From Eubacteriales bacterium (GTDB lineage: Bacteria; Bacillota; Clostridia; Oscillospirales; CAG-382), in contig JAZQGP010000014.1 of assembly GCA_045540015.1 (NCBI GenBank), positions 2,850 to 66,849 of the forward strand: 64,000 bases of DNA. The letters are read 5' to 3'. The notes below the pieces were generated by a model. It had not been told where the DNA came from. It searched no databases and saw nothing but the letters and a program-made list of their open reading frames with translations. Of this stretch, positions 2,155-48,048 are shown piece by piece. Every line of letters begins with the position of its first letter. The first letter of the stretch is position 1. The position numbers were made by a program, and so were the translations under genes.

Positions 2155-2447
2155 CCTACTTTCTTGGAAGAAAGTAGGCAAAGAACTTTTCATTGGTGAA
2201 ATTGAAGTTTAAACAACTTCAATTTCACGGAACTTTCTTGACGATTAAAGCTTAGCAAAAACTTTTCATTGGTGACATCGAAGTCTGAACAACTTCGATG
2301 TCACGTTGTATATTTAGGCGGAATCTGAGAACGAGGTTGTTTAAAGCTCGTTTTCAGCGTGAAACGGACGCAGTCCGCGCTTTTTGAAAAAAGCTTAGCA
2401 AAAACTTTTCATTGGTGAAATTGAAGTCTGAACAACTTCGATGTCAC
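2155..2447 (+). repeat. Dispersed repeat cluster: post-stop palindrome plus three module-A hairpins plus a module-B hairpin
   Basis: CCTACTTTCTT-GG-AAGAAAGTAGG (2155-2178) lies directly after the stop codon. Module-A hairpins are at 2196-2228, 2272-2304 and 2415-2447, each preceded by AAAGCTTAGCAAAAACTTTTCATTG. The module-B hairpin CTGAGAACGAG...CTCGTTTTCAG is at 2325-2357. Confidence 0.85.
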
Positions 2448-2602
2448 GTTTTAATTTCTATAACAACAACCCTTTTATTGATTTTTCTGCAATTATCAAT
2501 TACATGTTTTGTTCCCTTTGACGAGCCGTCCCAAAAAGCAAGCACAACATCTGATGCATTTATTATTTCAAGACCTCTTGAACCGATAATTGCAACTATC
2601 AT
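2444..2602 (-). pseudogene. Internally deleted remnant of a DUF2493/SLOG-like gene (52 codons)
   Basis: Below the track size cutoff. AGGAG lies 8 nt upstream of the ATG at 2602. The translation is MIVAIIGSRGLEIINASDVVLAFWDGSSKGTKHVIDNCRKINKRVVVIEIKT. It joins the N-terminal (I)IGSRG motif directly to the C-terminal AFWDGxSKGT motif, with the ~70 central residues of full-length family members missing. The stop codon lies inside the repeat hairpin at 2415-2447. Confidence 0.4.
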
Positions 2603-24530: not shown

Positions 24531-24688
24531 TCATAGCATTTTATGATGTTGATTAAAAAATTGCTTGCAATATGCGCATAAATATGGTAGAATATATCAG
24601 TTAAAGCTGAACATCATAGAATAAATGTTAAATTGAAGTCGTTTAGACTTCAATTTAACAAATTAAAAATGTGCAAAGGGGAATGATT

Positions 24689-25992: not shown

Positions 25993-26485
25993 CCGCTTTC
26001 TTGAAAGAAAGCTTGGCAAAGAACTTTTCATTGGTGAAATTGACGTTTGAACAACATCACGCTTTTTGAAAAAAGCTTAGCAAAAACTTTTAAACGGTGA
26101 AATTGACGTTTGAACAACATCAATTTCAGAATTGCTCAATCAGTGCAGCTTTGCCATCTTACAAGTAATCGCCGTAAGCTATGGAAGCCGGGCTGAAAGA
26201 CCAAACAGGTTTAAGATGAGGAATAAACTTTTAAAAAAAGTAAGATAGAAAGGCGTCGGCGACAAGGGAAGAATACATAAGGAAACCGTAGGTGTCCTTA
26301 TGGGTGCTCTTTTGCCTACTTATCTGCACAAGCAGAAAAGTAGGGCCTCCACGGCAGTGGAAAGCTACAAATTTGGTTTATGCCCACCTCGGCGATAGCC
26401 GACCATTATCAATAGAAAGAGTAACGCCCCACGGCAGTGGAAAACTGCAAATACAGTTTATGACTTCCTGCCGTCAGGCAGAATG
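25993..26485 (+). repeat. Composite dispersed repeat (post-stop palindrome, 2x module A, modules C, D, E), forward copy
   Basis: Palindrome at 25995-26012. Hairpins at 26276-26302, 26315-26345, 26348-26361, 26389-26402, 26429-26440 and 26468-26481. 26050-26183 is the exact reverse complement of 34302-34435. Confidence 0.9.
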
Positions 26486-30184: not shown

Positions 30185-31177
30185 ATGCCGAAATCGCCCA
30201 TGCAGAAATCAAAGCTTCTATACATAATGAAATATCTTGAAACACATTCGGATGAGGAGCATACGGTAACGGTTGAGGACATTGTGTCGTACCTTGATTC
30301 TAAGAGTATTAAGGCGGAGAGAAAAAGCCTGTATGATGATTTTGAACAGCTAAAGCTGTTTGGAGCAGATATTCTTTCTGTGAGAAAAAACAGGACTGTC
30401 GGCTATTATCTTGCTTCGCGTACCTTTGAGGTTTCGGAATTGAAACTTCTTGTTGATGCGGTTCAAGGCTCAAGGTTTATAACGCAGAAAAAGTCGGCAG
30501 AGCTTATAAAAAAGCTGGGTTCTCTCTGCAGTACATATGAAAATGCGGCGCTCTCCCGTCAGGTGCTTCTCAGCAACAGAATCAAGTCAATGAACGAGAG
30601 TATTTACTACAATGTTGACAAAATACATAATGCAATAAACAACGACAAAGCGATAACGTTTCATTATTTTGAATACAACCGCAAGAAAGAACGTGTTCTT
30701 AGACACGACGGAAAGCTGTACAGCGTAAGCCCGTTTGCACTCAACTGGGATGACGAAAACTATTATCTGATAGGATTTGACAACAACATAGAAAAAATCC
30801 GTCATTACCGCGTGGACAAAATGATAGACATTACGGTGACACGAAACATCCGCCAAGGAAAAGAGGTTTTCAGAGAGCTTGACGTTGAAAAATACGCAGG
30901 AAAAGTGTTTTCGATGTTTGGCGGGCAGCAGGTGCGAGTGTGCATGGAGTTTGACGAGAGCCTTTGCGGTGCGGTTATTGACAGATTTGGCAAGGACGTG
31001 CTTATGCGTGACAGCGAAAATGAGGGCAAATTCTATGTTCACAGCGATATTGTTGTAAGTGACCATTTCTTTGGTTGGCTGTTCTCGTTCGGGGATAAGG
31101 CAAGGGTTGTGACACCCGAAAATGTTGTGGTGCAGTTCAGGGAGTATGCAGAAAAAGTTCTGGGGTTGTATAGTTAA
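30185..31177 (+). CDS. WYL-domain transcriptional regulator (wHTH-WYL-WCX; BrxR/CapW/PafBC-like layout)
   Basis: N-terminal wHTH (KLLYIMKYLETHSDEEHTVTVEDIVSYL), a central WYL-type block (ITFHYFEYN...YSVSPFALNWDDENYYLIGFD...IRHYRVDKM), and a C-terminal extension. Confidence 0.8.
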   Translation: MPKSPMQKSKLLYIMKYLETHSDEEHTVTVEDIVSYLDSKSIKAERKSLYDDFEQLKLFGADILSVRKNRTVGYYLASRTFEVSELKLLVDAVQGSRFITQKKSAELIKKLGSLCSTYENAALSRQVLLSNRIKSMNESIYYNVDKIHNAINNDKAITFHYFEYNRKKERVLRHDGKLYSVSPFALNWDDENYYLIGFDNNIEKIRHYRVDKMIDITVTRNIRQGKEVFRELDVEKYAGKVFSMFGGQQVRVCMEFDESLCGAVIDRFGKDVLMRDSENEGKFYVHSDIVVSDHFFGWLFSFGDKARVVTPENVVVQFREYAEKVLGLYS

Positions 31178-31192
31178 CCCAATCACATATGT

Positions 31193-31221
31193 TTGACATT
31201 TTCAACTAAAAATGTTATAAT
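31193..31221 (+). promoter_or_regulatory. Consensus sigma-A promoter with an embedded inverted repeat, driving the nuclease-like gene
   Basis: TTGACA (31193-31198), a 17-nt spacer, extended -10 TGtTATAAT (31213-21). The 7-bp inverted repeat ACATTTT / AAAATGT (31196-31202 and 31209-31215) occupies the spacer. Confidence 0.6.
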
Positions 31222-31242
31222 TTTATAAAGGAGTGGTATATA

Positions 31243-32781
31243 ATGGATTTTTTAAAATTTGTAGAACAAATACCCAACATTTCTATTGCCAAAAGAGTAG
31301 CTTCTGCATATGTTGCCGACTATAGGCGTTTAGAGCTTGGAGAAATTATTGAGTTTTTGAAAAAAACCGCCCAACAGTATACCTCCTACGAAAATATATC
31401 TAATAGATTAGAAGAAATAAAGCTTGATTCAAATAGGGCGGTACGTATCATTGCTCCGATTCTCTTGCGTGATTATCTGTTGAACCAGGATGATTTTATT
31501 TCTCCAACAAAAGACACCGATACTGCAATCCTCAATTACGAGAAAAGCATTATAGATGAATCTAATAACTTCGAAATATCAAAAATGTCAAAAGATTTTG
31601 CCTTGTTTAAACACATGCTTGATGCAGCGTGGGCACATAATGACGACATATCTGTAGATGAAAAGAATTTGTTAGAAACATTAAGAAAATATCTATCCAT
31701 ATCCATAAAAGAATTCCATATGCTGGATGCAAAATCCGGAAGATTTCCTATGCTCGGAAATGCGCTTCATACATACGATGACATTGAGGACACACGAAAG
31801 ATTCTTCAAACAAAAGGCTTGATTGTTTCAATAAGGAATTCTGATGGTGTTATGTGTGATATGATACCTGATGATATAGCAAAATGTATTCGTCAGTACT
31901 ATAATATTGAAATTCGTTCATATGGATATGAAAAATTGACTGATTATGTTATTAAAAAGACTAAAAAACAATATCTTATAGATATTATTGAAAAGGCAAA
32001 CCAATATTTGGAAAAGGCTAAAATTGAAATATCAAACAATCCCACAATAAGTGAACTAAAAGAAGTTATATTGAAATCTATTCAGCCTTCCAACCTTATT
32101 GGTGGTTTCTCTCCTCGAGATGGGTTAGATGTAACGATGCTTACAAATTGGTGTTCGGACATTGGACTTAGTGTTTCTGGTAATAAAAGTTCTTTAATTG
32201 AAAGAATTCTTGAATACTACGACTCAATGCGAAAAATTGAAATAAAAACCGAAGATGAAAGAGAAAAACTTCTTGCTTTTTATAATCAGCTTGCAAACAG
32301 AGATTTGAAAAATTTAAGGGCAAATAATGTAATAGAAAAAGATTTGCAGTGCGAGCATTTGTTTGAAGATGCAACAAATTATATTTTTGAAAAATTATTG
32401 CTCAATAAACCTTTAACACTAACCGGATCAGAACATCCGGACGGCAAATTGTCTTTCAAAGATAAATATATCATGTGGGACAACAAGTCAAAAGAAACAG
32501 CAGTCAACCTTAAAGACCATATCAATCAATTTGAACGTTATATAAAAACATCCGACAAAGATGTTGCTGTGTTCATGGTTATTGCTCCTGATTTTACTCA
32601 ACAAAGTATTCAGGAATGTGTCGATTTCGCTTTGAATAATGACACACAAATTCTCTTAATTACAGCAGAAGAATTGAAAACGGTTGCCGAAACATGGTCA
32701 AAGAATCATCCTGGTGAAATCTTCAATTTGGGCTATTTCAAACAGAATGGCAGATTTGACATTAAGCTATTAAACTTATAA
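31243..32781 (+). CDS. Orphan multidomain protein: unknown N-terminal region + SAP-like motif + C-terminal FokI-type PD-D/ExK nuclease-like domain
   Basis: 512 aa, with AAAGGAG RBS. SAP-like LTNWCSDIGLSVSGNKSSLIERILEYY. C-terminal blocks FEDATNYIFEKL, HPDGKLSF, IMWDNKSK, NQFERYI, VFMVIAPDF and ILLITAEEL parallel the FokI cleavage domain as remembered. Noticeably AT-rich compared with its neighbours. Confidence 0.55.
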   Translation: MDFLKFVEQIPNISIAKRVASAYVADYRRLELGEIIEFLKKTAQQYTSYENISNRLEEIKLDSNRAVRIIAPILLRDYLLNQDDFISPTKDTDTAILNYEKSIIDESNNFEISKMSKDFALFKHMLDAAWAHNDDISVDEKNLLETLRKYLSISIKEFHMLDAKSGRFPMLGNALHTYDDIEDTRKILQTKGLIVSIRNSDGVMCDMIPDDIAKCIRQYYNIEIRSYGYEKLTDYVIKKTKKQYLIDIIEKANQYLEKAKIEISNNPTISELKEVILKSIQPSNLIGGFSPRDGLDVTMLTNWCSDIGLSVSGNKSSLIERILEYYDSMRKIEIKTEDEREKLLAFYNQLANRDLKNLRANNVIEKDLQCEHLFEDATNYIFEKLLLNKPLTLTGSEHPDGKLSFKDKYIMWDNKSKETAVNLKDHINQFERYIKTSDKDVAVFMVIAPDFTQQSIQECVDFALNNDTQILLITAEELKTVAETWSKNHPGEIFNLGYFKQNGRFDIKLLNL

Positions 32782-32806
32782 AATCTAAAAAAATTTCAAA
32801 AAACCC

Positions 32807-32835
32807 TTGACAAAGCGGACAATGCGTGATATAAT
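32807..32835 (+). promoter_or_regulatory. Consensus sigma-A promoter of the rplJL operon
   Basis: TTGACA (32807-32812), a 17-nt spacer, extended -10 TGaTATAAT (32827-35). Confidence 0.7.
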
Positions 32836-32841
32836 CCGTGT

Positions 32842-33012
32842 GTTGACCTGAGAAAACAGGTGGTGAGGCTCTCACTCTAACGGATTTTAAATGCAAAGTC
32901 CGCCTGTCGAGGAAGATGTAATTAAAAGAATATAATTTGATTTGTATTCTCCCGTACATTGTCCTTTTTCTATGGTCGAAAAGGGCATTTTTTATTTTGG
33001 GAGGTGAAACAT
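32842..33012 (+). promoter_or_regulatory. Ribosomal protein L10 leader (autoregulatory 5' UTR with terminator-like hairpin)
   Basis: A ~170-nt untranslated leader lies between the promoter and rplJ. It ends in a CCTTTT...AAAAGG hairpin followed by a T-run (about 32960-32995). The position and layout match the Firmicute L10 leader, but the consensus was not verified. Confidence 0.55.
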
Positions 33013-34084: not shown

Positions 34085-34492
34085 GCGGCTATCGCCGGAG
34101 AGTCATAATCCAAGTTTATGGCTTTTCACTCTGCCGAGAGCGTTCATTTTCTGTTCGCCCAGAAAATGAACCAAAAGATGCGACTAAGAGCACCTACGGT
34201 TCTCTTAGTTATCTCTCCCTTATCGCCGACGCCTTTCTATCTTACTTTTTTAAAAAGTCTACCCATCATCTCAAACCTGTTCGGTCTTTTCTTCCGGCTC
34301 TCATAGCTTACGGCGATTACTTGTAAGATGGCAAAGCTGCACTGATTGAGCAATTCTGAAATTGATGTTGTTCAAACGTCAATTTCACCGTTTAAAAGTT
34401 TTTGCTAAGCTTTTTTCAAAAAGCGTGATGTTGTTTAAACATCAATTTCACCGATGGAAAGTTCTTTGCTAAGCTTTCTTTCAAGAAAGCGT
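34085..34492 (-). repeat. Composite dispersed repeat, reverse copy (inverted partner of 25993-26485)
   Basis: Same module order when read on the minus strand. Hairpins at 34085-34098, 34127-34140, 34142-34171 and 34183-34209. Palindrome at 34473-34490. 34302-34435 is the exact reverse complement of 26050-26183. Confidence 0.9.
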
Positions 34493-34592
34493 GGCTTTTT
34501 TCAAAAAGCGGGTAGACAAATGCGGGATTGTGTGGTATAATATATGCGTATATTTGTGTTCAGACGTAATTTTTGTGAAGGAATAGAGTAAT

Positions 34593-38284: not shown

Positions 38285-39016
38285 ATGTCCGGACATTCCA
38301 AATGGAAAAACATTATGCACAAGAAGGAAAAAACCGACCTTCAGCGTGCAAAGGTATTTACAAAAATCGGTAAGGAAATAGCAATGGCAGTACGCGACGG
38401 CGGTCCCGACCCCGTTTCCAACACAAAGCTTCGTGACCTTATTGCAAAGGCTAAGGCTAACAATGTGCCTAACGACAATATTGAGCGTACCATCAAAAAA
38501 GCATCCGGTGCGGACGGCTCCGTTAACTACGAGGTTATCGTATACGAAGGTTACGGACCGAGCGGCGTTGCGGTTATTGTTGAAACAACCACCGACAACA
38601 GAAACAGAACGGGTGCAGACATGAGGCATTATTTTGACAAATTTGGCGGAAATCTCGGTCAGACAGGCTGTGTATCATACATGTTCTCCGACAAGGGTGT
38701 TATTGCCATTGACGGAGAGGGTATTGACGAAGAAAAGCTCATGGAGGATGCTCTTGAAGCGGGTGCCGACGACATTTCCGGAGAAGACGGAATTTTTGAG
38801 GTTACAACAGACCCGTCTGAATTCTCGGCTGTCACCGAAGCGCTCACCGAAAAGGGCTACAAGTTTATTTCGGCAGAGCAGTCCAAAGTTCCTGCAAACT
38901 ATGTAACTCTTACTGACGAGGATGCCATCAAAAACATGACAAAGCTTCTTGATATGTTTGACGAAAATGACGACGTTACCAACGTCTGGCACAACTGCGA
39001 CAACGACGATTTTTAA
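38285..39016 (+). CDS. yebC: YebC/PmpR family DNA-binding transcriptional regulator
   Basis: MSGHSKWKNIMHKKEKTDLQRAKVFTKIGKEI signature. Confidence 0.95.
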   Translation: MSGHSKWKNIMHKKEKTDLQRAKVFTKIGKEIAMAVRDGGPDPVSNTKLRDLIAKAKANNVPNDNIERTIKKASGADGSVNYEVIVYEGYGPSGVAVIVETTTDNRNRTGADMRHYFDKFGGNLGQTGCVSYMFSDKGVIAIDGEGIDEEKLMEDALEAGADDISGEDGIFEVTTDPSEFSAVTEALTEKGYKFISAEQSKVPANYVTLTDEDAIKNMTKLLDMFDENDDVTNVWHNCDNDDF

Positions 39017-39059
39017 AAAAAGCTTAGCAAAAATTTTTGATTGGTGAAATTGAAGTTTG

Positions 39060-39226
39060 AACAACTTCAATTTCACAATACTTCCTCAAGAAGCCAAACA
39101 TTAATTTTTAACAACTTCAATTTCACAATACTTCCTCAAGAAGCCAAACATTAATTTTTAACAACTTCAATTTCACAATACTTCCTCAAGAAGCTAAACA
39201 TTGATTTTTAACAACATCAATTTCAC
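39060..39226 (+). repeat. 50-bp tandem repeat, 3.3 units, seeded from the 3' arm of a module-A hairpin
   Basis: The unit AACAACTTCAATTTCACAATACTTCCTCAAGAAGCCAAACATTAATTTTT starts at 39060, 39110 and 39160, with a partial unit at 39210. The first two units are identical, the third has 2 changes, and the partial fourth unit (17 nt) has one change. A complete module-A hairpin sits at 39044-39076. Confidence 0.9.
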
Positions 39227-47724: not shown

Positions 47725-47795
47725 TTACTTTCTTAGAAGAAAGTAAGCAAAGATTTTTTGAACAGAGACATTGAAGTTTAAACAACTTCAATGTC
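47725..47795 (+). repeat. Dispersed repeat: post-gene palindrome plus a module-A hairpin
   Basis: TTACTTTCTT-AG-AAGAAAGTAA (47725-47746) and GACATTGAAGTT-TAAAC-AACTTCAATGTC (47767-47795). Confidence 0.8.
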
Positions 47796-48048
47796 ACACT
47801 GCGTTTCATTGTTGTTACGCTTGAAGTTTGAATGACTTTAGTATCCCGTTATACCTGTCAGCAAGGAGTTACAAGCCGTGTTTGAGGCTTACGTGTTTTT
47901 GCTGCTTTTCGCCCGATAGCGCAGCCAAAACGTCAAAGCATAGTGTATTATCTTAACTCTTTTGCTGATTTTTACACTTTACAATATAAAAAAATATGGT
48001 ACAATAATACTATAAACCACAAATTTCGGTGATATTGGAGGTATAAAA

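Follow-up and report, generated by a model that had tools for sequence, protein, structure and literature searches.

In a 64,000-nt stretch of contig JAZQGP010000014.1 from a Eubacteriales bacterium (assembly GCA_045540015.1; the whole stretch is hereafter called the window), two co-directional genes lie between tmcAL and the rplJL operon: gene 1, for a WYL-type regulator, and gene 2, for a protein of 512 aa. The arrangement raises the question of what the 512-aa protein is, whether its gene belongs with the regulator beside it, and how it came to stand directly before a ribosomal-protein operon. An earlier note, made from the sequence alone, had taken the pair for a candidate defence or toxin cassette. 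We find that gene 2 very probably specifies a FokI-type PD-(D/E)xK nuclease fused to SAP motifs and encoded as a stand-alone gene, and that this gene appears to move between gut bacteria singly and under its own promoter.

Domain architecture of the 512-aa protein

In order, the protein comprises a helical N terminus of ~290 aa, two SAP-type motifs, a helical linker and a C-terminal FokI-type PD-(D/E)xK domain. That the C terminus forms a nuclease fold, as had been proposed from a comparison with FokI, is borne out by Pfam matches in relatives, by a confidently modelled structure (pLDDT 93) and by FokI as the top Foldseek match of that model. On the window protein itself the Pfam model FokI_cleav_dom (PF09254) reached 13.7 bits (E = 0.043), under its gathering score of 25; it matched 15 of 44 diverse full-length relatives at E ≤ 0.01 (best 9.3e-8), and precomputed tables assign PF09254 to most homologues. 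Searches of the PDB with the single sequence or with a profile of close homologues gave a weak AvtR match or SAP matches, and never FokI. Sequence-to-PDB searching was therefore too insensitive, and a fold search and hhalign were needed. The AlphaFold2 (AF2) model built on the diverse 44-sequence alignment had a pLDDT of 93.3 and a pTM of 0.85, and took the place of an earlier model from 32 close homologues that was discarded (pLDDT 52). Its best Foldseek match in the PDB was FokI (2FOK/1FOK; E 1.4e-5, prob 1.0), and after it came Nt.BspD6I, HindIII and the small subunit of R.BspD6I, with a TM of 0.57 on the target for 2P14; a search of viral folds in BFVD returned weak, generic restriction-endonuclease-like matches only.

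The presumed active site is equally recognizable. Aligning the family profile with the FokI cleavage domain in hhalign (Prob 77 %, E 2e-5), which serves as corroboration only, paired HPD400G with KPD450G, D413-N-K415 with D467-T-K469 and QFERYI with EMQRYV, and set E375 against the Glu of the FokI 'ILEMKV' helix. All six blocks quoted for the FokI comparison in the earlier note lie where it had put them, and hhalign reproduces their alignment block by block. The residues it predicted as catalytic, D400, D413 and K415, were likewise numbered correctly and are conserved family-wide: neither they nor E375 vary among 32 close relatives, and each of the four is conserved to ≥ 90 % across the 44 diverse ones. 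Among close copies the cleavage domain as a whole is 88 % identical (aa), and aa 1–170 are 78–82 % identical.

Upstream of the cleavage domain, Pfam detected a SAP motif above threshold (Table 1), around which the AF2 model has helices at 297–306 and 315–327. The motif was matched in 31 of 32 close and 26 of 44 diverse relatives, and the family profile, when run against the PDB, found the SAP domains of Ku70, PIAS/SIZ1 and DEK. A SAP-like element had been predicted at aa ~296–326; the motif itself stood and its start did not, as LTNWCSDIGLSVSGNKSSLIERILEYY occupies aa 300–326. Many relatives in the broad 44-sequence alignment carry two SAP motifs in tandem, and the position that aligns with the first of these is Pfam-significant in distant relatives (e.g. 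P0177 aa 231–265, 2.6e-10).

For the ~290 N-terminal residues, which had been described as carrying no nameable motif, we obtained the same result: aa 1–295 had no match among Pfam, NCBIfam, PADLOC or PDB sequences. There is weak similarity to TerB, centred around DDISVDEKNLL, the Pfam model matching six of the 44 diverse relatives (best 1e-4), all under the gathering score. The helix/β-hairpin/helix module that follows contains P209, which is invariant family-wide, and is possibly winged-helix-like, the Foldseek matches of the modelled structure to winged-helix proteins being of low probability. Used alone as a homology query, the N-terminal 294 aa returned the same family and no other architectures, and representatives with partial coverage had no additional Pfam domains.

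Borders, composition and distribution of the gene

The coordinates, strands and lengths given earlier for the two open reading frames (ORFs) matched ours exactly. Gene 2 is AT-richer than its surroundings, as had been observed (GC 0.326, versus 0.426 in gene 1 and 0.436 in the whole window), and the 2-kb bin that holds it has the lowest GC content of the window. Two of the hand counts behind that observation (15/60 and 24/60 G+C) were right, and the third, 27/60 in the WYL gene, was recounted as 28/60. Across homologous loci the nuclease gene was AT-richer than its flanks in 55 out of 55, by a mean of ~10 points and in hosts of 34–61 % GC. Only in low-GC Mycoplasmatota and Erysipelotrichaceae does its GC content equal that of the flanks, which points to an origin in low-GC lineages. 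The metagenome-assembled genome (MAG) JAZNBG has a TmcAL 31 % identical to that of the window and a nuclease 88 % identical. By these comparisons the nuclease gene is evidently accessory and horizontally transferred; the earlier description of it as acquired, AT-rich and free of a methyltransferase agrees with its composition in all 55 loci and with its neighbours, among whose recurrent or listed families there was no DNA methyltransferase. Synonymous sites between copies are saturated (pS ~0.8, with pN 0.13), and dN/dS is ~0.05 for the CDS and ~0.05–0.16 in every domain, the N terminus included; the transfers are thus old, and the high protein identity reflects selective constraint. Recent horizontal transfer, which that identity might suggest, was rejected on the same saturation.

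DNA homology to other loci is confined to ~31192–32781, and the transferable unit appears to consist of promoter, ribosome-binding site (RBS) and ORF (window 31193–32781). The promoter recurs as TTGACA-N17-TGnTAnAAT in nearly all of 52 homologous loci with upstream sequence, and the GAGGTGG/AAGGAG element is conserved in other copies. The cassette lacks its own terminator, and the rplJ promoter and L10 leader follow it (Table 1); rplJL is not preceded by rplKA in the window. A terminator-like hairpin lies within the L10 leader, and transcription that read through from the terminator-less cassette would meet the L10 attenuator.

Two contigs from sister strains bear on how the site is occupied. 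In L108, identity is 97 % over the cassette, the rplJ leader and rplJ; high identity begins at the −35 element, and a BspA-type leucine-rich repeat (LRR) gene occupies the WYL position upstream. In L270, a cassette-free contig found by look-up of L7/L12, the nuclease is absent: an identity of 95.7 % over the rplJ leader and rplJL begins at 32788, 7 nt past the nuclease stop, and upstream of it lies a different gene of 831 aa on the reverse strand. The gene sets 5′ of the rplJ promoter therefore differ in all three close relatives (95–97 % nt identity in rplJ/rplL), being tmcAL–WYL–nuclease in the window, the BspA-type LRR gene and nuclease in L108 (1–1700), and the reverse-strand 831-aa gene without nuclease in L270 (1–2745). 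It follows that strains differ in whether they carry the nuclease here and that the sequence 5′ of the rplJ promoter is variable; the spot appears to be a local rearrangement or insertion hotspot. The premise that accessory DNA is unexpected here is accordingly weak, given these three arrangements and the preference of the family for sites near rRNA operons (rrn) and tRNA genes.

A fusion of the WYL 3′ tail to the LRR gene in L108 (breakpoint 31150) was considered and rejected, as alignment identity begins at ~31192, at the −35 element. The window copy is flanked by neither direct nor inverted repeats and shows no target-site duplication. Searching for an empty site by way of TmcAL led to a closest genome of 47 % identity, and no rplJ, WYL or nuclease gene lay downstream in 80 loci. 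Exact look-ups of the window L10, WYL and TmcAL proteins gave no match, nor did a 29-nt rplJ-promoter probe against JGI metagenomes.

Homologues of the nuclease number more than 500 in 90 %-identity clusters and fall into 261 clusters at 50 % identity. Most are ~500–610 aa long with the same layout, and public records name them only 'SAP domain-containing protein' or 'hypothetical protein'. The close subfamily (71–90 % identity) comprises 63 species-representative genomes of ~185,000, and the divergent subfamily 30 loci at 45–50 % identity, with Acidaminobacter, Izemoplasmatales, Acholeplasmataceae, Erysipelotrichaceae, Syntrophomonadaceae and others as hosts. None of the 63 close loci shares the window flanks. 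Their 90 immediate neighbours represent 142 Pfam families, nearly all housekeeping, of which only 23S_rRNA_IVP recurs (seven times), and no methyltransferase, helicase or ATPase partner is recurrent among them; beside the nuclease in the window, too, there is no such gene, as had been reported. The 103 neighbours of the 30 divergent loci belong to 100 families with no conserved partner, and no DNA methyltransferase is among the families listed for them. Judged by these neighbourhoods, the nuclease gene has no conserved partner gene. Two paralogous copies per genome were found in Izimoplasma sp. ZiA1 (L197, L202) and in MAG CBFCWH (L199, L200), so that paralogue pairs occur in at least two low-GC organisms.

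Full-length distant homologues (23–24 % identity) extend to Halorubrum virus Humcor1, a haloarchaeal tailed virus (L109, HrrHm1_140), and a second haloarchaeal homologue lies on the Natrinema versiforme megaplasmid pNVE500 with an integrase nearby (L110, FEJ81_RS20545); the family thus crosses the divide between bacteria and archaea on mobile elements. Eight relatives match phrog_34709, an unannotated PHROGs family. At L112 the neighbourhood includes AbiEii, SocA_Panacea and a ResIII helicase. At L005 a small accessory island surrounds one nuclease copy, made up of an S49/ClpP-like peptidase, a 121-aa ORF, the nuclease, a YhcG-type PD-(D/E)xK nuclease and an apparent RNase-toxin/barstar pair, of which Pfam confirmed YhcG_C only. 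The MAG that contains L005 is labelled Gastranaerophilaceae, perhaps through a binning error.

Elsewhere in the window, a ~71-nt intergenic repeat is dispersed and partly tandem, and occurs no fewer than 10 times there and once in L270. It holds two palindromes, GCTTTTTGAAAAAAGC and a 14-bp stem GTGAAATTGAAGTT/AACTTCAATTTCAC, coincides with low-GC intergenic dips and looks like a REP/MITE-type element. The window also contains a giant ORF (3090 aa), and the BspA-type LRR gene of the sister strain L108 suggests that its product may be a protein of the surface or repeat type.

Table 1. Features of the locus and of related loci (window positions unless a contig is named)
Feature	Position	Strand	Basis or remark
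Gene 2, SAP/FokI-like nuclease CDS, 512 aa	31243..32781	+	Stop codon 32779-32781
aa 366-512, FokI-type PD-(D/E)xK cleavage domain	32338..32778	+	Pfam in relatives, Foldseek, hhalign
Codon E375, helix-alpha1 acidic residue of nuclease core	32365..32367	+	≥ 90 % conserved in 44 diverse relatives
Codon D400 (HPDG), equivalent of FokI D450	32440..32442	+	Conservation, hhalign
Codons D413-N414-K415 (DxK motif), equivalent of FokI D467-T-K469	32479..32487	+	Conservation, hhalign
aa 303-326, SAP motif (Pfam PF02037)	32149..32220	+	26.7 bits versus gathering score 23.9
aa 226-290, first SAP-like helix-loop-helix, degenerate and with an insertion in the window subfamily	31918..32112	+	Alignment
aa 171-225, helix/beta-hairpin/helix module	31753..31917	+	AF2 model, alignment
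aa 1-170, all-helical N-terminal region	31243..31752	+	AF2 secondary structure; no PDB sequence match
aa ~111-170 (DDISVDEKNLLETLRKYLSI), weakly TerB-like	within 31243..31752	+	Pfam TerB, sub-threshold in relatives
Cassette sigma70 promoter, TTGACA, 17 nt, TG-extended TATAAT	31193..31221	+	12/12 match; sequence, conservation
RBS AAGGAG, 9 nt 5′ of ATG	31228..31233	+	Read from sequence
rplJ promoter, TTGACA-17-TATAAT	32807-32835	+	12/12 match; 26 nt after nuclease stop codon
L10 leader (RF00557)	32829-33002	+	42.1 bits, just under gathering score 44
Terminator-like hairpin in L10 leader	32960-32987		
Gene 1, HTH-WYL-WCX regulator, 330 aa	30185..31177	+	ORF list, Pfam, PADLOC; outside cassette
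Giant ORF, 3090 aa	9666-18938	+	
~71-nt repeat, window	2164-2448, 24627-24659, 25994-26128, 34357-34496, 39006-39076, 47756-47797		
~71-nt repeat, sister contig	L270 4058-4145		
Example rRNA/tRNA stretches upstream of the nuclease gene	L045 1-307; L036 175-566; L048 2-200; L010 24-363		Gene starts 420-1400
X repeats	L001 298-330, 1961-2001; L004 412-445, 2078-2119; L047 5876-5909, 7540-7582; L005 3958, 6677, 10130; L062 389, 1570		
Accessory island around a nuclease copy	L005 2178-8112		
Gut-1 RNA (RF01706)	L018 2601-2673; L048 233-303		
Gut-1 RNA (RF01706)	L022 3164-3234	-	
RT-5 RNA (RF03026)	L046 7125-7226		

Function of the nuclease

A single-effector restriction or defence role is the most plausible one for gene 2, and we put at about even the chance that its product is a stand-alone, type IV-like, methyltransferase-independent restriction nuclease directed against incoming phage or plasmid DNA. 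The gene arrives repeatedly and alone, with a constitutive consensus promoter, in hosts without a cognate methyltransferase, so that discrimination of self from non-self must be built into the protein; an endonuclease that occurs without a methyltransferase, one trait of type IV enzymes, is what the listed neighbours at ~93 loci show. In the mechanism that we infer, the SAP motifs would tether the nuclease to DNA, and the N-terminal region would recognize something that host DNA does not have (a modified base or an unusual structure), or would sequester the nuclease as the recognition domain of FokI does, or both. Two catalytic domains would pair before cutting, in the manner of FokI, and the outcome would be type IV-like restriction of the incoming phage or plasmid DNA. 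The mobile-element and conflict-gene contexts of some homologues (Humcor1, pNVE500, L112 and L005) count in favour of such a role. The tight constraint on the whole protein argues for an invariant target and not for an arms race with variable phage proteins.

Several observations weigh on the other side. Most nuclease loci lie among housekeeping genes and not in defence islands, and PADLOC-DB 2.0.0 returned no family for the nuclease and scattered, single weak matches among the 44 relatives. No modified-base reader (SRA, PUA/EVE/YTH or DpnI-type winged helix) was found by Pfam, NCBIfam or PDB searches in aa 1–295 of the protein or in its 44 relatives. Strong, uniform purifying selection is unusual for arms-race proteins and fits a conserved cellular role equally well. 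Finally, the placement of many copies next to rrn operons and tRNA genes hints at selfish mobility.

That placement might be the mark of a selfish gene resembling those of homing endonucleases, whose product would recognize a conserved sequence near rRNA, tRNA or other translation genes and cut at a distance in the way of type IIS enzymes, the cassette then being copied in by repair and persisting for its own benefit, not that of the host. PD-(D/E)xK homing endonucleases are known, and we consider this alternative unlikely. A co-directional tRNA gene lies ≤ 800 bp upstream in 17 of 57 close-subfamily loci, compared with 12 of 467 other ORFs in the same loci (odds ratio 16, p ~8e-11), and Rfam places the distal ends of rRNA operons at no fewer than seven loci (the 23S 3′ end in L045; 5S and tRNAs in L010, L022, L033, L036, L046 and L048), which explains why contigs so often break just upstream of the nuclease gene. 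The window copy stands directly before another ultra-conserved translation operon, rplJL. A 23S_rRNA_IVP gene (~115 aa, a four-helix bundle, Pfam 1.9e-26) adjoins in seven to eight loci, upstream in L016–L019, L022, L041 and L061, where it sits between the tRNA array and the nuclease, and downstream in L055; it is a second small rrn-associated accessory gene and another rrn hitchhiker, and the setting as a whole looks like an rrn-operon-distal hitchhiker niche. The single-gene cassette with its sharp edges at the −35 element and the stop codon, and the presence of two nuclease copies in some genomes, would fit homing as well. So would a repeat 'X' of ~35–40 nt (GAAGAG-AGTGGCATCTAAACCATTCGG-CTCTTCCA...) that stands as direct copies on either side of the cassette in the subgroup nearest to the window protein; X brackets other genes too, might serve for recombination of the cassette or be a repeat of the REP/terminator type, and was not detected in the window by the X-repeat profile.

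Against homing stand insertion sites that are non-homologous: the occupied sites involve tRNAs of ~ten identities, many are without any tRNA or rRNA, the window site among them, and the divergent subfamily has no immediate tRNA adjacency. The window copy is without a flanking repeat, and even the most similar copies are ≥ 22 % apart at the DNA level, their synonymous sites saturated, so there is no sign of recent sweeps. Moreover, the rrn/tRNA bias may also stem from homology-facilitated recombination via conserved anchors or from insertion into safe harbours, readings that are inseparable here from that of a homing-like enzyme. Extended to the family as a whole, the idea would make it a new kind of free-standing, homing-like FokI-type cassette that spreads at rRNA/tRNA operon ends and ultra-conserved translation genes, using them as recognition or recombination anchors. 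This we regard as quite unlikely; it would explain the sharp cassette edges, the rrn, tRNA and rplJ neighbourhoods and the extreme conservation without a partner. Two structured RNAs were also seen in the surroundings of the cassette: Gut-1 RNA, an orphan Rfam motif, adjoins it in three loci, and RT-5 RNA lies a few kb from it in one (Table 1).

Quite improbable, too, is an accessory cellular nuclease for DNA processing (repair, recombination or chromosome maintenance) with no part in defence. SAP domains are characteristic of proteins that serve repair and chromatin in eukaryotes, Ku70, PIAS and SLX4 being examples, and the matches of the SAP profile to Ku70, SIZ1 and DEK would agree with such a role. 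The very strong and uniform purifying selection, a length fixed at 512 aa, the constitutive promoter, the mostly housekeeping neighbours and the lack of a defence-database match could all be read in the same way. Against such a role stand the patchy distribution of the close subfamily among species representatives, its variable presence between strains, the AT-rich composition in every higher-GC host, the lack of synteny and the homologues on a virus and a plasmid; furthermore, it is in restriction enzymes that a sequestered FokI-type domain is typically found.

The layout of an N-terminal DNA-binding region and a C-terminal FokI-type domain, and whole-chain structural matches that are best to FokI and Nt.BspD6I, would also suit an orphan type IIS endonuclease that has its cognate methyltransferase gene at another place in the genome. 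We judge this very unlikely. The earlier note had held that gene 2 is not part of a classical type IIS restriction–modification (R-M) system, and the neighbourhoods agree: no DNA methyltransferase occurs in the window flanks or among the recurrent or listed families of the 90 and 103 neighbours (~93 loci), and without a linked methyltransferase the gene does not qualify as a type IIS R-M system. In addition, the gene transfers alone, a step that would be lethal if its product were sequence-specific and cut unmodified DNA, and the putative recognition region is highly conserved and not diversified.

This leaves the regulator. Gene 1 has the winged helix-turn-helix (HTH)–WYL–C-terminal-extension layout that had been ascribed to it, with WYL (2.7e-10) and WCX (3.5e-7) by Pfam, generic WYL models of PADLOC at 5.8e-28 and an HTH-like N terminus; no solved homologue was detectable by sequence search. 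Its ORF begins 17 nt after the stop of tmcAL (Pfam HIGH_NTase1, 4e-95). A survey of homologues, as the earlier note had suggested, revealed no coupling between the two genes and no conservation of the pair at this position. Among 44 loci with homologues of the window WYL protein (38–68 % identical), none has the nuclease beside it, and there is no partner common to these loci, defence and DNA-damage genes included. Least tenable of all, and already largely refuted on present evidence, is therefore a module of two genes, with the WYL protein as sensor of a signal and gate on nuclease expression, as BrxR or CapW might be: the genes are co-directional and 65 bp apart, the WYL–WCX architecture is real and a WYL gene lies near the nuclease in 3 of 63 loci (L030, L042, L043), but the nuclease has its own conserved consensus promoter, a WYL gene is adjacent in only 2–3 of ~90 loci (2 of 90 immediate neighbours), with proteins 28–37 % identical to that of the window and differently placed and oriented, L108 keeps a 97 %-identical nuclease beside an LRR gene in place of WYL, and the GC content of the WYL gene is host-like, unlike that of the nuclease gene. 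Gene 1 thus appears to be an unrelated chance neighbour, and a WYL regulator found beside a nuclease should not automatically be taken as its gatekeeper.

Significance and relation to known systems

Literature searches returned no paper on a bacterial SAP plus FokI-type family, and nothing relevant on SAP with anti-phage functions or SAP with TerB. The family appears to be uncharacterized, widespread and unusually conserved, a group of modular restriction-type nucleases whose function we infer. If the proposed restriction role is true, a widespread restriction-type family, spanning gut Clostridia, Mycoplasmatota and haloarchaeal mobile elements, has gone without functional annotation and has been missed by current defence-finding tools. 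Bacterial SAP motifs that tether a nuclease would be an unusual architecture, and in its conserved N terminus the protein may have a DNA-feature sensor of a new kind. Zinc-finger nucleases (ZFNs) and transcription activator-like effector nucleases (TALENs) use FokI as their nuclease module, and because of this use another lineage of such cleavage domains, itself highly conserved, could be of value. The placement beside rrn, tRNA and ribosomal-protein operons also raises the question of whether single genes cross species via ultra-conserved anchors.

Among known proteins, gene 1 resembles the BrxR/CapW/PafBC-type HTH–WYL–WCX regulators in its WYL and WCX domains and HTH-like N terminus, and differs from them in having neither a conserved defence or DNA-damage partner in the 44 loci nor a link to the nuclease. 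For gene 2 the best structural match is FokI (1FOK/2FOK, PF09254). The two share matching secondary-structure blocks, an equivalent triad (D400/D413/K415 and D450/D467/K469) and the order of N-terminal DNA-binding part, helical linker and nuclease. Unlike FokI, the gene 2 protein has no cognate methyltransferase, its N terminus is a helical region with two SAP motifs in place of the FokI D1–D3 domains, and the spacing from the first Asp to the DxK motif is 13 residues, compared with 17 in FokI. Nt.BspD6I and R.BspD6I (2EWF, 5LIZ, 2P14), the second-best structural matches, likewise have the FokI-like catalytic domain, and they illustrate that an enzyme of this fold that is unable to dimerize can nick DNA. 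Unlike the gene 2 protein, they have no SAP motifs and come from an R-M system that also comprises a methyltransferase and in which the small subunit is a separate protein.

In its design the gene 2 protein resembles solitary type IV fusion endonucleases, of which winged-helix fusions (PMC11037411) and PUA/SRA fusions (PMC6765204) have been described. None of the reader domains of those enzymes was detected in the gene 2 protein, and a combination of SAP and FokI-type domains is not among the architectures listed there; the logic would be the same, in that one polypeptide, encoded by a lone gene and without a methyltransferase, joins a reader of a DNA feature to a nuclease. END nucleases, finally, combine a phospholipase D (PLD) nuclease with an inactive EndoIII sensor, are related to type IIS enzymes and were missed by both DefenseFinder and PADLOC (bioRxiv 10.1101/2025.03.31.646159). 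The gene 2 nuclease is of the PD-(D/E)xK and not the PLD superfamily, has a different putative sensor and bears no sequence relationship to them; like them, it is the product of a single gene and would join modular sensor and cleavage domains.

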